Assembly (NCBI GenBank): GCA_951406725.2
Contig: OX597826.1
Coordinates: 19,282,001 to 19,346,000, forward strand
DNA length: 64,000 nt
Reading direction: 5' to 3'
Origin: Octopus vulgaris
Taxonomy: Eukaryota
Shown here: positions 1 through 59,712 of the stretch, piece after piece
Layout of the letters: each line of letters begins with the position of its first letter
Numbering within the stretch: position 1 is the stretch's first letter
Notes under the pieces: model-generated
Database searches by the model: none
What the model saw: the letters and a program-made list of their open reading frames with translations, nothing else
Told to the model about the DNA's origin: nothing
Program-made: the position numbers and the translations under genes

Positions 1-700
1 ATATGTCAAATCCTACCCAGACCGATGGGTATTTACTTTCATCCCTCCAGCATCAATGATAGCAACAATACACTGAATATACTGACGTCGATTCGATATA
101 GAACACATCTTTGTCGCTCTAGCTGTGTGAAGGGAGCAAATGTAGAAATCTGAATTACCACCTTTCAAGTTAAAGCTAAGCAACTGAACACTTAGTGCTT
201 TTATCTGTGACAAAGTAATAGCTTATCGCTCTGTCACATAGGGAAGTGTACCATCTGCTTGAAGGAAACTGGAGGTGAGATCAGCTCTGTAGAGCCTTCT
301 TATGGAGAAAAAGATTAAAATTTTACCGATGAGTGCAGTAGTAGCACTGTATATTCGATTTGTGTGTAGCTTGGTACACAGGTTCAACATTTTAAGTTCA
401 ATGGAAAATTAAAATCTTTAAGCTCTTCTCAGAAGAATTAAAATTGTACGAAGGAAATTAACTGGTATAAATGGAGAATCGAACCAGAGTATAGTTATCC
501 AGCATTTCGTTAACGTTTAGCAGTAGCTCATGTCTGAACACCTTGCAATCAGCTCTCTTCCGTTACACAATATGGAAACAAAATTTTCAATGGAGGTTAA
601 ATGCATTTGATGTGTTGTGAGTTCGTCCATAGCTTTCTAACGAAGTAAAGGAGGGCGTTCCAATTAGGCAAGTAAATATCTTATGATTTTTCTTTTTACA
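1..700 (-). mobile_element. Possible heavily decayed Helitron Rep/helicase remnant
   Basis: Broken minus-strand translations ('HLTSIENF', 'FRHELLLNVNEMLDNYTL', 'RRQYIQCIVAIIDAGG') loosely resemble, in the right order, Helitron RepHel motifs leading to the Walker A region (GPTSFEDL / GLLEDDNEW / IDAPGGTGKT); weak similarity. Confidence 0.3.
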
Positions 701-3759: not shown

Positions 3760-4183
3760 TTCCTGCAGGGATAAAGACTTGTACCCACTAAATGGAGCCT
3801 GTATGACCGAGCCATTATTTATGAAGCCACCGTAAATTCTACGAATGCTAATAACAGTTTTGTCAAAGAGATATGTGGGTCTCACGGAGGGAAATCTTAA
3901 AAGACATTGGGATAAACGAAAAGCTACCAAATTATCCAGTCATATACGGTTCTTAAAAGAACAAGGTGTCAGCTATAGGATTTACTGGAAGATCTTGGCC
4001 AAGTGTAAACCTTATACCAACGGTAGTAGCAAATGCGGGCTTTGTGATAAAGAAAGATGGCTCATCTGGAAAAGTTCCTTGGACCCCGCTACATGTCTGA
4101 ATTCAAGAACTGAACTTTTTGGATCATGTCCATATATGACAAAATATCTGTTACGGTTTTGGGGTCCCCAAGATCACGGATAG
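3760..4183 (+). pseudogene. PLE GIY-YIG endonuclease remnant (frameshifted)
   Basis: 'PLNGACM..IIYEATVN..KRYVGLTEG..TKLSSHI..WKILAKCKPY..KCGLCDKE..LNSRTEL..C' is typical of the PLE C-terminus. Confidence 0.85.
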
Positions 4184-4940: not shown

Positions 4941-5008
4941 CATTAAGAGCCGATGAGAATGCATCGCAGCTCTTAGCTCCTGCATTTGAAACTCTGAGTA
5001 CTATTATG
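4941..5008 (+). ncRNA. Type I hammerhead ribozyme motif, CCGAUGA core
   Basis: CCGATGA (4950-4956), stem II gaatgca/tgcattt, GAAA (4988-4991), ctctgag, TA, imperfect stem I. Confidence 0.7.
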
Positions 5009-7352: not shown

Positions 7353-8135
7353 ATGTATAGATAAATAGATAAATAAAATAAAATACAAATTTAGATGGGT
7401 ACAAAGATAAACTTAATATATAACAAATACACGCGAAAAAAACCCGTATATGCTCATCGAAATAAACAACGTATACTACTTATAGACTCACATTTGTTAC
7501 ATATTGGTATAGCAAAAACCTAAACCAGTGCCCTAAGATATGATGCGCATATACACCCTACACACATAAAAGACTCTGTGGAGATCAGAATATCATGCAT
7601 ATATCATAATAACTATATATTTCAGTATATTTTTCAAGCGGGGACAAAAACAATCAATATAGAACATATATATGGAGATACAAAATTATAAATTATAAAT
7701 TATAAGGACCAATAGTACAGTCCTATACAGAGGAATGTTAAAAGATTACTGGTAGAAAAATTAGGTGTTATTTAAATCTAGAGAAAGTATACGCTAATTT
7801 GTGAAGGCAAAAAAATTTCTCTCGTTAATGTTATTAATAATGGGTAGGCCAGCCTTGATGATGAAGAATATTTCATTGATACATAAAGAGCATTTTTTAT
7901 TTCTACTATTGTATACAGGTGCAGAAGTTAGTATTTCCCAATCTAATTTAAAATCTATGTTCTTACTCTTGAGTTCCCAGATATACGTACTTAACCCCGT
8001 AGAGTTCATCCTATTTTTATTTTTAAAAGTATATCTATGATAGTTTAGCCGTTGTTTTATACTATTTTTAGTCGCACCAATGTACACCCTGCTATTATGC
8101 TGTGTATTTACAGTGCATTGGTAAATAATAATATG
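7020..8135 (-). mobile_element. Penelope-like element 3' part with GIY-YIG endonuclease remnant (7794-8135)
   Basis: 'IIYQCTV..VYIGATKNSIKQRLNYHRYTFK..STGLSTYIWELK..KKCSLCINE'. Confidence 0.85.
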
Positions 8136-8496
8136 AAGCATGATATTGATAGCATTAGTGGTAATGACAAAGATAATGATGCTAACATTAATGACATTTT
8201 GGAAATTAATAAGAATTAATATTATGTACTCTTGACTCTGTATATCTGCATTTAGGTATTAATATGTGTATGTTTTTCTACATTGTAATTATCACAATAT
8301 TAAGTTGAAAAACTGTAACATTGAATGTGGAACATATGTATGTTTATTAATTTATATTATTTATATCATTATGTATATGTATATTTATATGTATAGGAGT
8401 ATGAGTATATGCACTCATATGTATATGTATATGTTTTATTATGGGTATGTACCCGCACCTGTATAAGTATGTATGTAATCTGATTTGTATCACATA

Positions 8497-8624
8497 ATCT
8501 CCGAAGAGGCCTTAGGATATTTTTTGTAAATGTCTCATTTATAACTACATATTGACCTACCATAAATGGCTAATATAAGTAAAATGAGACATACTTATCT
8601 ACATGGCCGAAACAGCTGTAAGAT
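8497..8624 (+). ncRNA. Type I hammerhead ribozyme motif, CCGAAGA core, long stem II
   Basis: atct / CCGAAGA (8501-8507) / ggcc...ggcc with inner helix atgtctcattt:aaatgagacat / GAAA (8609-8612) / palindromic cagctg / TA / agat. Confidence 0.8.
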
Positions 8625-9021
8625 GTAGTCTATATTTATATTTATATGTACTTATATTTGCATTCTCTTATACATATTCTACTTATTGTATAACATTACT
8701 CTTTTAGGTACACTCCTTTATGTACACTGTTTTGTTCTACATTATTATGTTTAACCTTATAGTTTCTTATGTGGTGGTTTAATAAAGTATGTGATTGAGT
8801 ATTATCTGGTAACTGATATTTGATTTCCATGTATTTCTCCATTTTCTTATTTTGTATTATGAATTTGTGGTAAATCACTTTACCTTTGCCCATATAATAC
8901 AGTAAATGAAATAATTGCATCGCAATTCTTAACATTTATGTATTAACTTTGTTGGGTACTTCACTGGCAGTATATTGGATATATGTTATCCCATGGAGGG
9001 TTGCATTTACAACCCCTATCT

Positions 9022-10953: not shown

Positions 10954-11056
10954 TTATTCCTCAGAGTTTCATGTTCCCGTTCGTCGAACAGTTGTGATGA
11001 ATACAATATTCATTACAAATGTCCGACGAACGGGAATGTGAAACCTTGCGCAACAA
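10954..11056. ncRNA. Head-to-head pair of degenerate mini-hammerhead motifs (same family as 37600 and 59675)
   Basis: Minus strand: ctgt-TCGACGA-acgggaacat-GAAA-ctctgag; plus strand: atgt-CCGACGA-acgggaatgt-GAAA-ccttgcg. Confidence 0.6.
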
Positions 11057-18960: not shown

Positions 18961-20184
18961 AGAAAGAAAAAAATAGACAGAAAGAAAAGTTGAAACGTAC
19001 AGCTGTAGGGTGTTTCAAACTTCACTGGGATAAGGTCATTGTAGCTCTCAATGCAGTTATTTAGCTCCAGGTCAACTCTGATCAAGCGGACCTTTGTTTG
19101 AAGACATACCAGCTGTGTCTGCGTTGAACAGACTAAGCTTCGCATATCCAAACATGTCCGAAGTTATCAACATAGCCACTAAAGATGAAGCTCACACACC
19201 CAGCATATCTCCATTTAATTTCTAGTCAACTGAAACTTAGAGTTCTCTCCCCAGCCTCTTTTGAGAGTAATATTCATTAGCATTGATACTTACCCGTTTG
19301 AATACGGTTTTAATTATGATTAAAATTTATTTACAGCTTGAACTTAACTGATAAAAACATATACATGCTTATATGTGTACATGTGTGAATGAGTATGTGA
19401 GTGCGCATTATATATAAATATATGACATCAGAGGAAGCGAATGGGATTTAGAATTATTATGTATTTCACATATATTATGGTATGGATAACATAAAATTGC
19501 ATGAATTGCATAATATTGTATGTTTATGGAAACAGTAGTAACATCAATTTGATTTCTCTTTCATTCATTATAATTATTACTTTATAGTGTTACACCGCTA
19601 AGTTCAGTGGCTAGTTAAGCAATGAATAGGTGGATAGTTAGTAGATTGGATGGGGTGCTGAAGAAGGAGCAATAATTCCTGAAATGTGCATATACACCCA
19701 TTACCTATTTTTCTATCTTCGATTGCATTGTTTACATAGACATATGTGTATAAGAAACGTCGTAACTGTCAGTACTGGCTCTAAATACTATACAAAATCT
19801 GAAGAGATACAGTTAAAAAATGGAAATAACGCACTTCTAAACAAAGTAGGACACAGTTTTGATTTGGTTTGCAAAATGAAATTTATATTTATTGCCTTCT
19901 GTGAGGTTGATGCAGTAAAACTCAACTACCATTCCTGGACATTCTAATCATCAAAACAAACACATTGTAACAGATACAAACCAACAGATTCTAAATAATA
20001 CCTGCTGTTCTCCACATGCCACCCAAACATACTAAGACCAATATTGCTTTTAATCTAGCAAGAAAAAATTTGCACAGTTGTTTCAAACGTTAAAACTCGT
20101 TCTATATTTAAGAGATGAGGAATTATGTACATTATTTACATTATTTACATTTGGCAGATATTTGTCCCCTTCTTGTTTGTTGTT

Positions 20185-29879: not shown

Positions 29880-30225
29880 GGGGCTATGATTACCTTCTAC
29901 GTATATTTCCTCTTTAGTACTGGGGATGTTTCATTTATGAGGACGTACTTCTGTATTTGTCTGAGTGTTGGGTCCTTTGGATACTTGGATAAAAGGCGGA
30001 TGTCAAGTTGACCCAGGTTGCCTCAATGTTGGTCCTTGGTATGTTGGTAGAGTATGGAGGACTGTTTTTGTCGCCACATTGTCTCAAATGTCCATTTAGT
30101 CTTTCCGCAATGTTCCTAGATGACTCTCCCAAGTATGTTATGTTCTTGTCTTTACAAGCACTTTCTATGCGTACGCTCCTTTATTTTCTACAATACTCTC
30201 CAATCTATCTGGTAGATCTGCAAGG
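29880..30225 (-). mobile_element. PLE GIY-YIG endonuclease fragment
   Basis: 'CKDKNITYLGESSRNIAERLNGHL'. Confidence 0.7.
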
Positions 30226-31340
30226 TCCGTGACGAAAAATACTCTTCCAGTACTGTTCTGACCGCGTCTAGAGAATTCGTATTTTTACCATCGAAATGAT
30301 TTTGAAAACTACGAAATAAATGATAATCAGATGGGGAAATGTCCGGCGAATATGATGAGTGGGGCATCGTTTCCCATTCAAACTGCTCCAGCCTTGCGAA
30401 TGTCATCCTCGCTGGATGTGGCCGAGCATTATCCTGATGGAAGAACACCTTTCCTCTTGAAACCAAAGAGGGTCGTTTTTCTTCTAGCGCTGACATAAGC
30501 CGCTCAAGCTGCACGCAGCAGATCTCCTTTGTTATCGTTTGCTTTGTGCTTAAAAGTTCACAGTGGATTAAACCTTTCATATCCCTCTGAACAGATAACA
30601 ATACCTTACGTGGAGTAAGACCTTCTTTAGCCTGGGGTACCGGTGTTTCTCCTTTCCTTACCCACTGTCGTCGGCGCTTGACATTTTTATAGAGAACCCA
30701 TTCCTCATTACCAGTCACTATTCGATCAAAAAAAAGGCTCATTTGTGGGACGTGACAGCGAAGAAGAGCACACATTAACTCTCTGCGCACGATTAGACTC
30801 GGAGAGTTTGTAAGGAACCCATCGACCCAATTTGCTGACTTTTCTGATGGCACGCAAGTGTCGATGAATTGTTGAATGATGAAATCCAAGCTTCTCCCCT
30901 AGTTCCTCGACAGTTACGGTGAGATTTTCTTTTAGGAGGGTTTGCAAGACACCCTTATCGAGCCCTACAGATCTTCCAGGATGAGGCTTGTCTTCTAGGC
31001 TGTAGTTTCCGGCTCCGAATTTCTGGAACCACCGTTAACACTGGCTTAGGCTTATTGCCTGATCCCCATATAATGAATTAATATTCCTCGCACTTTCCGT
31101 TGTGTTGTTGCCTTTATTGAACTCACAAAGCCGAATATGCTCCGTTGTCATTTCCATTATAACTTTGAAAAAGTAACTGTTAAAATCGAACTGCACTCTT
31201 CAAAACTTGCACTATGAATAAGGACAATGTAAAATTACTACCTTCTTTTATAGTAAGTTGATGTAGGTAGTTTACCCCGTCCCCCTCCGACTTTTAGTTC
31301 ACGCAATTGAAAAGACCGCAATATATATGGGATGACCCAA
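30226..31340 (-). mobile_element. mariner (DD34D) element with near-complete transposase pseudogene, 3' end truncated
   Basis: TIR ttgggtcatccca; ATG near 31157; WVPYKL, 'DRIVTGNEEW', 'FHQDNARPH', 'YSPDISPSDYHLF'; frameshifts; first catalytic D mutated to N. Confidence 0.93.
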
Positions 31341-37452: not shown

Positions 37453-37599
37453 ACGGGTTGCGCGCACGCGTGCGTGTGGTGTGCGTGTGTGTGCGTACCA
37501 GAGTAAGCATTTAAATGCGAAACAAGGGGGTAAATAGTACTCGAATACCAGAGGTAGAGTAATATGCTTTATTAAGACGCAGCAAAGATATCAAAAAAA

Positions 37600-37637
37600 C
37601 TGTTACTCAGAGTTTCACGTTCTCGTTCGTCGGACAG
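37600..37637 (-). ncRNA. 38-nt minimal type I hammerhead motif, CCGACGA core
   Basis: Minus strand: ctgt-CCGACGA-acg(agaa)cgt-GAAA-ctc(t)gag-TA-acag; all three helices pair perfectly. Confidence 0.85.
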
Positions 37638-38084
37638 TTTTGTTTAGAATGGAACAAAAATAAGCAAATACATATAATTAGTTTAATGGATGCACATTTG
37701 AAAATGGTTTTCTTTCATTGGTCCTTTCAAATAATGGTCTTTAAAATGACCAGTTGCATGCAATGAATAAAATTCGGTATAAAATCATCTTACTATAAAA
37801 TCGTAGAAAACCTCAAATCAAAAATAGCTTAAAAAGGACAGAGCCTAAATTAATTAATACATTAAAAGTTATATCCGTTTAAAATAGTTTTCACGTTGGA
37901 TTACATATACATTCAGCAGTATATGCACGTACGAAACCATCTATAATATACATATATACACTAAAACATATAGGCGCATGTACATAGTTATATACATACA
38001 TATACAAACATATACAGGCAAGACATAAATATATATACGAATGCACATATATATATATGTATATGTATGTATGCATATCTATCT

Positions 38085-38933: not shown

Positions 38934-39019
38934 ACTTTCGACACATGTTTCGAAAATTCCACTGATATTATTCAAAAGAATAAATGGTATAAACAATGCA
39001 ATCTTCTCTTCAGGAAAGT
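38934..39019 (-). ncRNA. Intact-looking type I hammerhead ribozyme with GUC cleavage triplet
   Basis: Minus strand: actttc-CTGAAGA-gaagatt...aattttc-GAAA-catgtg-TC-gaaagt. Confidence 0.88.
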
Positions 39020-39643
39020 TAAAAAAGGCAAGAAATTCTGTCTTTTCTGTAATTCTGAGCTATTTTTCATTATTTTTTCTAAAAATCCCCTAGTAAACAC
39101 GGTTATAGAGCGAGCATACAGATGTAAACATTGGCAAAAACACACCTTTAGTGCATATAAGTATTCTCTATCATTATATATAATTTAAACCTTAATTTCC
39201 TTTATATTTAACATTCACTATTAATATCCCTATTCTTTCTGTAAGCTACTTATGACGTTATATCGTATAACATTTCTTTAAACAATATTAATAACGTTCA
39301 GTTAATCGCTATACAAATCCATCATTTTTTTGCTAAAATGTCTTATTGACGAGTTTCGTTTTTTATATATATATATAGGGATTTCGTAGACAGAAACTTA
39401 AAGAAATCTATCGTATATATATGTATGTATGTATATATGTAAGTGTATGTGTGTGACTTTGTTTCTGTGTTTCGCCTTCATCACTGCTTCACAACTGCTG
39501 TTCATTTATTTACATCCCCATAACTTACTGGTTTCACAAGAAGAAACTAATAGAATAAGTACCAGGCTTATCAACATAAAAAAGCACTAGGCTGTGTCTC
39601 ATACTTTTCTTTGCCAACTCAGTTGTATCTATCAATTTATCTT

Positions 39644-57699: not shown

Positions 57700-59545
57700 A
57701 TATATATAATTACATCAAGGATAGTAAATCCTCTTAAAGGGATGTTACCATTCAAGTTCCACGGTTATATGTTAAAAATTAGAACAAACAGTAAAAGGTT
57801 GTCAATAGAGTACTCAGAAAGAGCTACGATATATTTCGTCGGCGATTAATGGCAACAGACGCTACGAAAAATCACTAGATAAAAGGGAAGTAACTCTAAT
57901 AGGTGGAAAAAGAAAAAGATTAAAATATAAAAATATATATGAATAAGCACACAACCATATCCTCACAATACATAGACAGAAACTTCCCGCGTTCACAATG
58001 TCTACATACGTACGCACTTACACAAACATGTATACGTACATGCACACACACACACACATACAAACATATATGTATGTACGTACTCATACATACACACATA
58101 TCCACACACACACGCACACGTGTATATATATATATGTATATAGGTACGCAACCTCATCCTCATATACACATAGGTGTTTACATGCATACACATAATATAA
58201 TACATATACCTTTACACAAATATCAGTATATATATACACACACATACACCCTCCCACCACACACCTACATCCGCACATATACAAACCTATGCATATCCAT
58301 ATAAGTGCCTGAAAATCGCACATATGCACCAGACACAGTCTTACACTCATATAATACATATATGGGCATACACACGCACCCACACAATATAATATAAATA
58401 CACACATATACACACACACACACGTACGCACTTCGACAATTAAAAAGGAAAAAGGAAAAAAGGAAAAAATATAAATTAAAAATTAATGGGAGTTAAAACA
58501 TATGGGAAAGTTTGTGCAGGAACATAGTAGAAAATTGGATTCTAGCCGTGATCCTGGGGGACCCAAAACAGTAGCAGGTATTTTGTGATATATGGACATG
58601 AACCAAAGAGTTCAGTTCTTGAATTTAAACATGTAGCAGGGTCTAAAGAACTTTTCCAGATGAGCCATCTTTCCATATTACAACGATTGTACTTGCCACT
58701 ACCGTTTACATTTGGCTAAGATCTTCCAGTAAATCCTGTAGTTCTTTTAAGAACCGTATATAACTGGATAATTTGGTAGTCTTTCGTTTATTCTAGTGCC
58801 TGGAGCTTAATGTGTGATTGTTGAATCTTGCTTTGAAATTTCCCGATGTGAGACCCATTATTATTAGCATTCGTAAAATTTACAGTGGCTTCATACATAA
58901 TCGCCTCGGTCATACAGGCCCCATTTAGTGGGCACAGGTCTTTATCCCTGCAGGAACAGCCGGTTTCGTGGTGTGTTGTATTGTGCGTAATTATGCCTTT
59001 AAAGTTTGGGGTGGAACTCAAACTAATTTTTAGGTTATGCCTAATAGTTGGGGTGTAACCTATTTCCTCTTTAAATTCACTAGCTTTAAGGGCATTGTTA
59101 TATAGTGGGGCAGCATCATTAAATATGTTTATATTGGAGGAGAGGCTAGAAATTCTTCTTAACTAAATTCTTTAAAATTATGGTGGGTGGGGTGGCAGGA
59201 ATCTACATTGGTATAACAAAATCTATCGTTGGGCATTCTATAGGGTTTGTAAATATTCTTTTGCAAATCTAGAGATACGTCAAGGAAATTGACAACAGTC
59301 AGGTTGGTATCTATTGGTATTCTTAGTTAAAGCTAAAGCATCGTTCCTATAAATAGCTGGTGTATATTTCGCGATTTATTGGGACGTTGCTCTAGACCAG
59401 AAATAAAGAAAAGGAAACGTAGACACAGGAAAATTATTCTGGTTCACAGCGCCTTACTCTCCTGAAGTAAATATTTCTTGTCACTCATAGATAGACGTCT
59501 TCCAATATATCACAAATATAGAAAACTCTTTAATAGGCATATATA
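57700..59545 (-). mobile_element. Penelope-like element, same family as 2761-5035, with inverted 5' fragment
   Basis: 'CSCRDKDLCPLNGACMTEAIMYEATVN' endonuclease; RT remnant 'NLTVVNFLDVSLDL..YKPYRMPND'; deleted hammerhead at 57800-57865; plus-strand piece 59400-59542 'WFTAPYS..LIDR..HKYRKLFNR'. Confidence 0.85.
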
Positions 59546-59674: not shown

Positions 59675-59712
59675 CTGTCCGACGAGTGGGAACGTGAAAC
59701 TCTGAGTAACAG
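59675..59712 (+). ncRNA. Minimal type I hammerhead motif, CCGACGA core
   Basis: ctgt-CCGACGA-gtg(ggaa)cgt-GAAA-ctctgag-TA-acag; downstream 59713-59825 matches 37497-37600 and 10860-10950 in reverse. Confidence 0.8.

Follow-up and report, generated by a model that had tools for sequence, protein, structure and literature searches.

The 64-kb window studied here, a stretch of 64,000 nucleotides from the 2.8-Gb genome of Octopus vulgaris in 227 contigs, holds hammerhead-like motifs in which the core CUGANGA reads CCGANGA, with C instead of U at position 4 (U4C). This raises the question whether C4 belongs to decayed copies or to the elements that produced them, and whether a ribozyme with such a core might still cut.

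Hammerhead motifs in the window

CCGANGA heptamers had been reported at six positions in a preliminary description of the window, and all six were located there. The bare heptamer occurs at chance level (11 in the window vs 8.7 expected), so only the full fold was counted as evidence. A strict type I descriptor recovered the family hammerheads from 895,505 bases of real loci, and gave 3 matches in three shuffles of these bases, i.e. about one false match per shuffle. Fold scans found the three helices in type I order around the core. C3, G5, A6, G8, A9, GAAA, the A15.1-U16.1 pair and an NUH site were present at 37596, 59675, 8497 and 4944, and also in the BLAST-selected alignments of families 1 and 2. 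The U4 of the uridine turn is the exception in this type I set, as C4 is the majority state. The features are as follows:

37596-37641 (-): family 1 type I hammerhead from the fold scan, 46 nt in total
37641-37634/37603-37596 (-): its helix I, 8 bp
37633-37627 (-): its core, with C4 at 37632
37626-37617 (-): its helix II, 3 bp and a 4-nt loop
37616-37613 (-): its GAAA
37613-37605 (-): its palindromic helix III
between 37604 and 37603 (-): its predicted cut, at a GUA site
37495-38060 (-): 5'-truncated family 1 copy of about 570 bp (upstream end approximate), 3' UTR and terminal repeat of a Hydra-clade Penelope-like element
59675-59712 (+): complete family 1 hammerhead with C4; two of three helix II pairs are G-U wobbles
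11017-11055 (+): family 1 hammerhead remnant with C4; helix III and cleavage triplet scrambled
about 10955-10996 (-): inverted partner copy of the 11017-11055 remnant
4944-5007 (+): family 2 hammerhead with C4, core at 4950-4956; helix I broken after 2 bp
3761-4153 (+): decayed Hydra-type GIY-YIG endonuclease end of a family 2 copy
57800-57850 (-): family 2 hammerhead remnant with C4, core at 57836-57842; GAAA deleted
58572-58958 (-): decayed endonuclease end of the second family 2 copy
8497-8624 (+): family 3 hammerhead, complete once a long helix II insert is allowed
8497-8500/8621-8624 (+): its helix I
8501-8507 (+): its core, with C4 at 8502
within 8497-8624 (+): its helix II, GGCC/GGCC enclosing a 93-nt insert
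within 8497-8624 (+): its palindromic helix III, with the predicted cut after 8620
8124-8857 (+): 3' part of a young family 3 copy; over the 161 bp used as query, it shares 96-99% identity with its best matches
7797-8123 (-): inverted 5' segment of the family 3 copy, with a GIY-YIG endonuclease (Pfam PF01541)
38934-39019 (-): canonical U4 hammerhead (internal control), adjoining an inverted Hydra-type endonuclease end at 39021-39161 (+)
19653-19699 (+): canonical U4 type I hammerhead of another family (internal control)

By sequence, each of the six sites is a type I hammerhead or a decayed copy of one, situated in the terminal repeat of a Penelope-like retroelement. The helices described earlier as intact at 8497, 37600 and 59675 indeed belong to full folds, with the 93-nt insert at the first and the wobbles at the last; the copies at 11023, 4950 and 57836-57842, which had not been called intact, are damaged. 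The 37600 copy had been given as only 38 nt long and this needs correction, as the hammerhead measures 46 nt with its full helix I and lies inside the copy of about 570 bp. The endonuclease at 7797-8123 matched PF01541 with E 1.6e-4 and 22.3 bits, slightly below the cut-off of 22.6.

An Rfam search of 37500-37720, up to E 10, gave no hammerhead family. Of 215 Rfam matches in the window, the 150 listed included none either, and the U4 controls of the window were likewise absent from them; the Rfam matches proved to be repeat-driven microRNA noise. The window is rich in microsatellites. Folding of monomers did not recover the hammerhead fold (z-scores 0.33 to -1.75), a measure that is uninformative for dimer-type motifs.

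Some further observations concern the same stretch. The insert in helix II of family 3 (8512-8604, +) forms a long hairpin whose base is 11 bp and differs from one subfamily to another, and the U4 relatives at 38934-39019 and in locus L167 likewise carry long inserts. A possible decayed C4 remnant lies at 326-365 (+), where CCGATGA is followed by a 4-bp stem without GAAA, and another possible remnant at about 7390-7460 (-), a T3-C4 heptamer in the inverted family 3 segment. One chance CCGACGA match is held by an open frame of 236 residues at 30191-30898 (-), which we take to be a fragment of a mariner-type transposase by its resemblance.

The elements carrying the hammerheads

Families 1, 2 and 3 each sit behind a C-terminal GIY-YIG endonuclease, which is colinear with the hammerhead in locus L159 for family 3 and was seen in loci L039/L157 and L017 for family 1. 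Translations of families 1, 2, 3 and 5, read by eye, showed a C-terminal GIY-YIG domain in which CxxC and CxH flank conserved E and N and an internal CCHH is absent. As in the Hydra clade, copies are 5'-truncated, end in (TA)n and often have an inverted partner. The reverse transcriptase motifs RWK and DKT, which are marks of this clade (PMC8557442), are present in a 711-residue ORF of a U4 sister of family 1, of which the family 1 copy in L157 is a broken close relative; RW and DKT were seen in family 5. The shared Hydra-clade type of GIY-YIG endonuclease places families 1, 2 and 3 in one clade, so that the former description of three unrelated families does not hold, though their endonucleases are mutually only about 28-30% identical.

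In an endonuclease tree of 6 local and 45 homologous rows, which is short and provides no test of clade membership, family 1 grouped with its U4 sister at 69% identity, families 2 and 5 joined at 64%, and family 3 fell beside a U4 family at 38%, on a long branch; identity between these groups was 28-36%. Families 1, 2 and 3 are accordingly read as three Hydra-clade sub-lineages, each with U4 relatives. The endonuclease in L105/L167 beside a family 3 copy was considered as family 3's own and rejected, as it belongs to a separate U4 family. L167:4842-7333 (-) holds a Hydra-type ORF whose reverse transcriptase and endonuclease are separated by a long insert rich in asparagine and serine; a stop and a frameshift break this ORF, and a U4 hammerhead comes after it.

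The U4 sister of family 1 gave 86 scored protein matches, most with open frames near 727 aa and mostly with 97-99% identity. All 28 of 28 copies had U4, and helix II has an A-A mismatch at its base. This is a very young Hydra-clade family, whose open ORFs (L166:3991-5481 on the minus strand, L168-L197) number dozens and are nearly identical.

Helix III is a short palindrome in all three families, of 9 nt with an odd centre in families 1 and 2 and a perfect one of 8 nt in family 3. The published hammerheads of Hydra-clade elements (Craig et al. 2021, PMC8557442) are described with the same type I fold, short palindromic helix III and C-terminal GIY-YIG ORF upstream, and the elements with the same (TA)n insertion and inverted 5'-truncated copies. 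In the supplement of that paper, the arms of family 1 match by eye the row of coral Hydra-2_aMil and those of family 3 the rows of sea-anemone Penelope-1_NV and 1A_NV, whereas the 93-nt insert in helix II of family 3 sets it apart from the published hammerheads. The protein of one family found here resembles the published Hydra-1_oBim by eye.

Position 4 in families 1, 2 and 3

When position 4 was left free in the search pattern, family 1 had 808 genome matches and 0 control matches. T4 was found in 171 of the 808, leaving at most 637 with C4; one G4 occurred among the first 100 matches listed. The product of CpG mutation on the opposite strand, C4-A5, was present in 137 matches. Eight of the first 100 T4 matches listed belong to the sister U4 family, which corrects T4 to about 157. 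Against the 137 A5 copies this fits the symmetric decay predicted for a C4-G5 master (p 0.27; 171 vs 137 uncorrected, p 0.06), and most T4 copies of family 1 would have arisen by CpG decay from such a master.

Among 30 BLAST-selected loci of family 2, position 4 was C in 26 and T in 4, and position 5 was G in 22 and A in 8. The youngest subfamily of family 3 had C4 in 46/46 matches. For the wider family 583 matches were obtained, and a by-eye count of the first 100 gave 89 C4 and 11 T4, six of the latter from a distinct U4 subfamily. Family 3 is covered by contigs of four sequencing runs labelled as four organisms, and no RNA run was listed among those carrying it. Among the 40 of 75 matches listed for these contigs, which cannot reveal RNA ends, no difference was found at 8502, a result that does not bear on editing, expression or cleavage.

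These majorities place C4 in the replicating master elements of families 1, 2 and 3, as the preliminary description had proposed from the shared CpG: C4 creates a CpG and runs against methylation-driven decay. It had also named U4 in genome-wide consensuses, with the window copies as outliers, as an outcome that would speak against its view, and the tabulation gave the reverse. The chance level of the bare heptamer and the damage to three of the six sites might have raised the suspicion that U4 families account for the C4 copies, as decayed outliers or by chance matching. This is now practically refuted by C4 majorities in position-4-free genome counts with 0 control matches.

Further C4-majority families

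Flank scans and a loose C4 pattern led to two more families; the pattern served as a source of leads only, as its 723 matches stood against 1,072 in the control. Family 5 is of Hydra type, and in a by-eye count of 90 copies it had 64 CCGA, 24 CTGA and 2 CCAA, its search pattern matching only a length variant of helix III. Family 7 had 12,340 matches, and the first 100 comprised 74 CCGA, 21 CTGA, 3 CCAA and 2 CAGA. T4 lies far above A5 in both (p 1e-5 in family 5 and 3e-4 in family 7), which indicates true U4 subfamilies inside each. C4 thereby appears as the majority state in five families, namely 1, 2, 3, 5 and 7.

The family 7 element is about 210 bp long, with a minimal hammerhead, no ORF match and insertion in (TA)n (loci L218-L237, around 1430-1640), and it looks like a short non-autonomous Penelope-like derivative. 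One U4 relative, in locus L200, lies about 600 bp behind an endonuclease that we assume from its motifs to be of Neptune type. The C4 subfamilies of family 7 share 30/31 hammerhead positions and their flanks are 62-72% identical. This contrast (binomial 7e-6 and 5e-4), exposed as it is to seeding and ascertainment bias, suggests continued selection on the hammerhead block. The hammerhead fits the minimal Penelope-like consensus described in PMC4209133 (extra base after A9, G10.1-C11.1, no loop III).

Overall the strict descriptor found 173 hammerheads, most of them from selected loci, including 1 A4 and 0 G4. Twenty-one matches at first fell outside the named families and three of these turned out to be family 2 or 7 copies. 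The 18 incidental hammerheads of other families that remained were 14 U4 and 4 C4, the latter from three families, with two of the four in one duplicated segment. Three more families with a C4 copy and intact helices are represented by L002:1293 (+), L003, L006 and L057, and the family of L057 also has a U4 copy in L233. A helix III shorter by 2 nt recurs in families 1 and 5 (including L198-L217). At the middle of the helix III palindrome, a direct copy often differs from its inverted partner.

Exchange of U and C at position 4

A tree of family 3 was made from 25 chosen copies with position 4 masked; L238, which has lost its 3' part, was dropped, and three listed loci fell outside the extraction pattern. 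The tree requires 2 changes at position 4, so that U and C have changed between sister subfamilies. Rooted on the most divergent copy, which has U4 and is about 75-77% identical to the rest, it nests a U4 subfamily among C4 subfamilies, and would fit one gain and one reversion, or two gains.

Over 376 columns, 65 subfamily-level changes were counted: T>C 15, A>G 14, T>A 10, C>T 6, A>T 6, G>A 5 and 9 others. The corresponding per-site rates were 0.088 for T>C, 0.133 for C>T, 0.058 for T>A, 0.133 for A>G and 0.091 for G>A. From these rates a site free for U and C would be C in about 40% of cases, near what is observed. A fully free site should also yield A4 families, and no A4 or G4 family was seen among the families examined. 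Ambros and Flores reportedly found in 1998 that at position 4 of a viroid hammerhead only C works, not A or G.

One way to account for the many C4 copies is that C4 was favoured and spread, slower cleavage leaving more uncut tandem transcript as insertion template. The C4 majority in five families, including family 7 with its 12,340 matches, and the persistence of C4 through several family 3 subfamilies although it is part of a CpG would agree with this, as would the report that insertion in vitro mainly uses uncut RNA (PMC11167929). We regard it as unlikely, given that a U4 subfamily is nested in the C4 part of the tree as rooted above, that the youngest full-length family is U4, and that, from the T>C and C>T rates measured here, a mixed state is expected even if selection is absent.

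Coleoid cephalopods show heavy A-to-I RNA editing. In double-stranded RNA from inverted repeats, editing of the antisense arm would read as T>C in the sense strand, and a tolerated C4 might accumulate by this supply. Inverted partner copies that include the hammerhead are common, T>C and A>G are the commonest of the family 3 changes, and such a supply would explain the contrast with the U4 state of 25/25 families elsewhere. Per site, however, A>G and T>C are no higher than C>T and G>A, and the spectrum is that of one small family, without control retroelements or taxa; we therefore think this origin quite unlikely.

C4 had also been suggested to be possibly attenuated or compensated. N7, N17 and helix II vary freely among C4 families, and their comparison among these families revealed no compensating change. 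An inactive alternative fold stabilised by C4 was considered and rejected: the cost of unpairing the core is lower for C4 than for T4 in families 1, 3, 5 and 7 and slightly higher in family 2 only, so that C4 copies carry no extra misfolding penalty.

Probable cleavage by C4 hammerheads

U4 contacts the backbone between A6 and N7 (PMC3088659). When a type III hammerhead was scanned by mutation, activity was low for every single mutant of the CUGA turn (PMC9901934). C4 might abolish cleavage and the motif be kept as a protein-bound structure or by hitch-hiking. Other Penelope-like elements lend this some plausibility, as a lizard hammerhead cuts only with protein and its catalysis is dispensable for insertion in vitro (PMC11167929), and as Naiad elements proliferate without canonical hammerheads (PMC8557442). 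Yet only U and C were seen as family states, and G5, A6, G8, A9, GAAA, the GUH site and the palindromic helix III persist across families with differing helix sequences. The patterns themselves fixed most other core bases and are unable to show core conservation, and of the 35 arm positions of family 3 copies, none of which varied, 26 were fixed by the pattern. Natural U4C variants of viroid-type RNAs self-cleave: in peach latent mosaic viroid U4C lowers activity in vitro and the viroid is still infective (PMC3088659), and CCGA in four variants of a citrus viroid-like RNA left self-cleaving capability unaffected (PMC9608096). With the same core change thus reported as self-cleaving and compatible with infectivity, loss of cleavage is distinctly unlikely.

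We rather consider it probable that the C4-majority hammerheads in Hydra-clade terminal repeats still cut as protein-assisted dimers, likely more slowly, with U and C nearly interchangeable. The fold would cut the element RNA after the GUH site, as is expected from established hammerhead chemistry, and the palindromic helix III points to cleavage as dimers. Selection would keep the fold and the other core bases and barely separate U4 from C4, because slow or occasional cleavage would suffice for the elements. Replicating lineages would then let position 4 drift between U and C, and CpG mutation would return their old copies to T4, or lead them to A5. Minimal Penelope-like hammerheads are described as slow even as dimers (PMC4209133).

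Several findings stand against a weakened but working ribozyme with near-neutral U4 and C4. Of the 27 Hydra families that the metadata of PMC8557442 name, 25 come with a hammerhead, and all of their 26 rows in file S2 show U4, whereas C4 is the majority in families 1, 2, 3 and 5 here. C4 therefore looks enriched in this genome, and simple neutrality gives no reason for this. The one family in which many intact ORFs were shown, the sister of family 1, has U4; among the ORFs that came up incidentally, none was an intact one of a C4 family. The incidental hammerheads are mostly U4 (14/18), and the low activity of CUGA-turn mutants weighs here as well.

Consequences for hammerhead searches

The variant had been described as lineage-specific, which stands as an enrichment only: viroid-type RNAs are known to have U4C too, and this genome also contains active U4 families. 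In viroid-type RNAs it is a rare variant of an RNA population, whereas here it is fixed in several high-copy families of animal DNA with dimer-type hammerheads. What is new is accordingly the fixation in high-copy animal retroelements. Lunse et al. are said to have surveyed many Penelope-associated hammerhead variants in 2017. In the literature and in the supplements of PMC8557442 and PMC4209133 we did not find C4 as a family state of Penelope-like elements, which Lunse et al. 2017 could already list. The natural core variant described in PMC4209133 (Cervera and de la Pena 2014) is U3-A8, and its searchable supplement holds 2 CCGA strings, both outside the core, and CUGA 58 times.

A CUGANGA core was part of the descriptors with which Penelope-like hammerheads have been searched for in the literature (PMC8557442; PMC4209133), so that published counts can miss whole families. 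That such searches would overlook the C4 families had been foreseen and proved correct. A broader proposal would be that the core is effectively CYGANGA in this lineage, that U4C was gained at least three times as a tuned, slow-cleaving state through selection for uncut templates or RNA editing, and that a large share of the hammerheads, thousands of them, is invisible to standard descriptors; taken as a whole we hold this to be doubtful. The C4 motifs of several large families, with thousands of copies, likely still cut, if more slowly. Sister subfamilies that differ at position 4 (in family 3, in family 7, and family 1 with its sister) are natural test pairs, which bear on whether Penelope-like ribozymes must cut, and how fast. 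Family 7 alone implies about 9,000 C4 copies if the ratio of 74/100 holds over its 12,340 matches.
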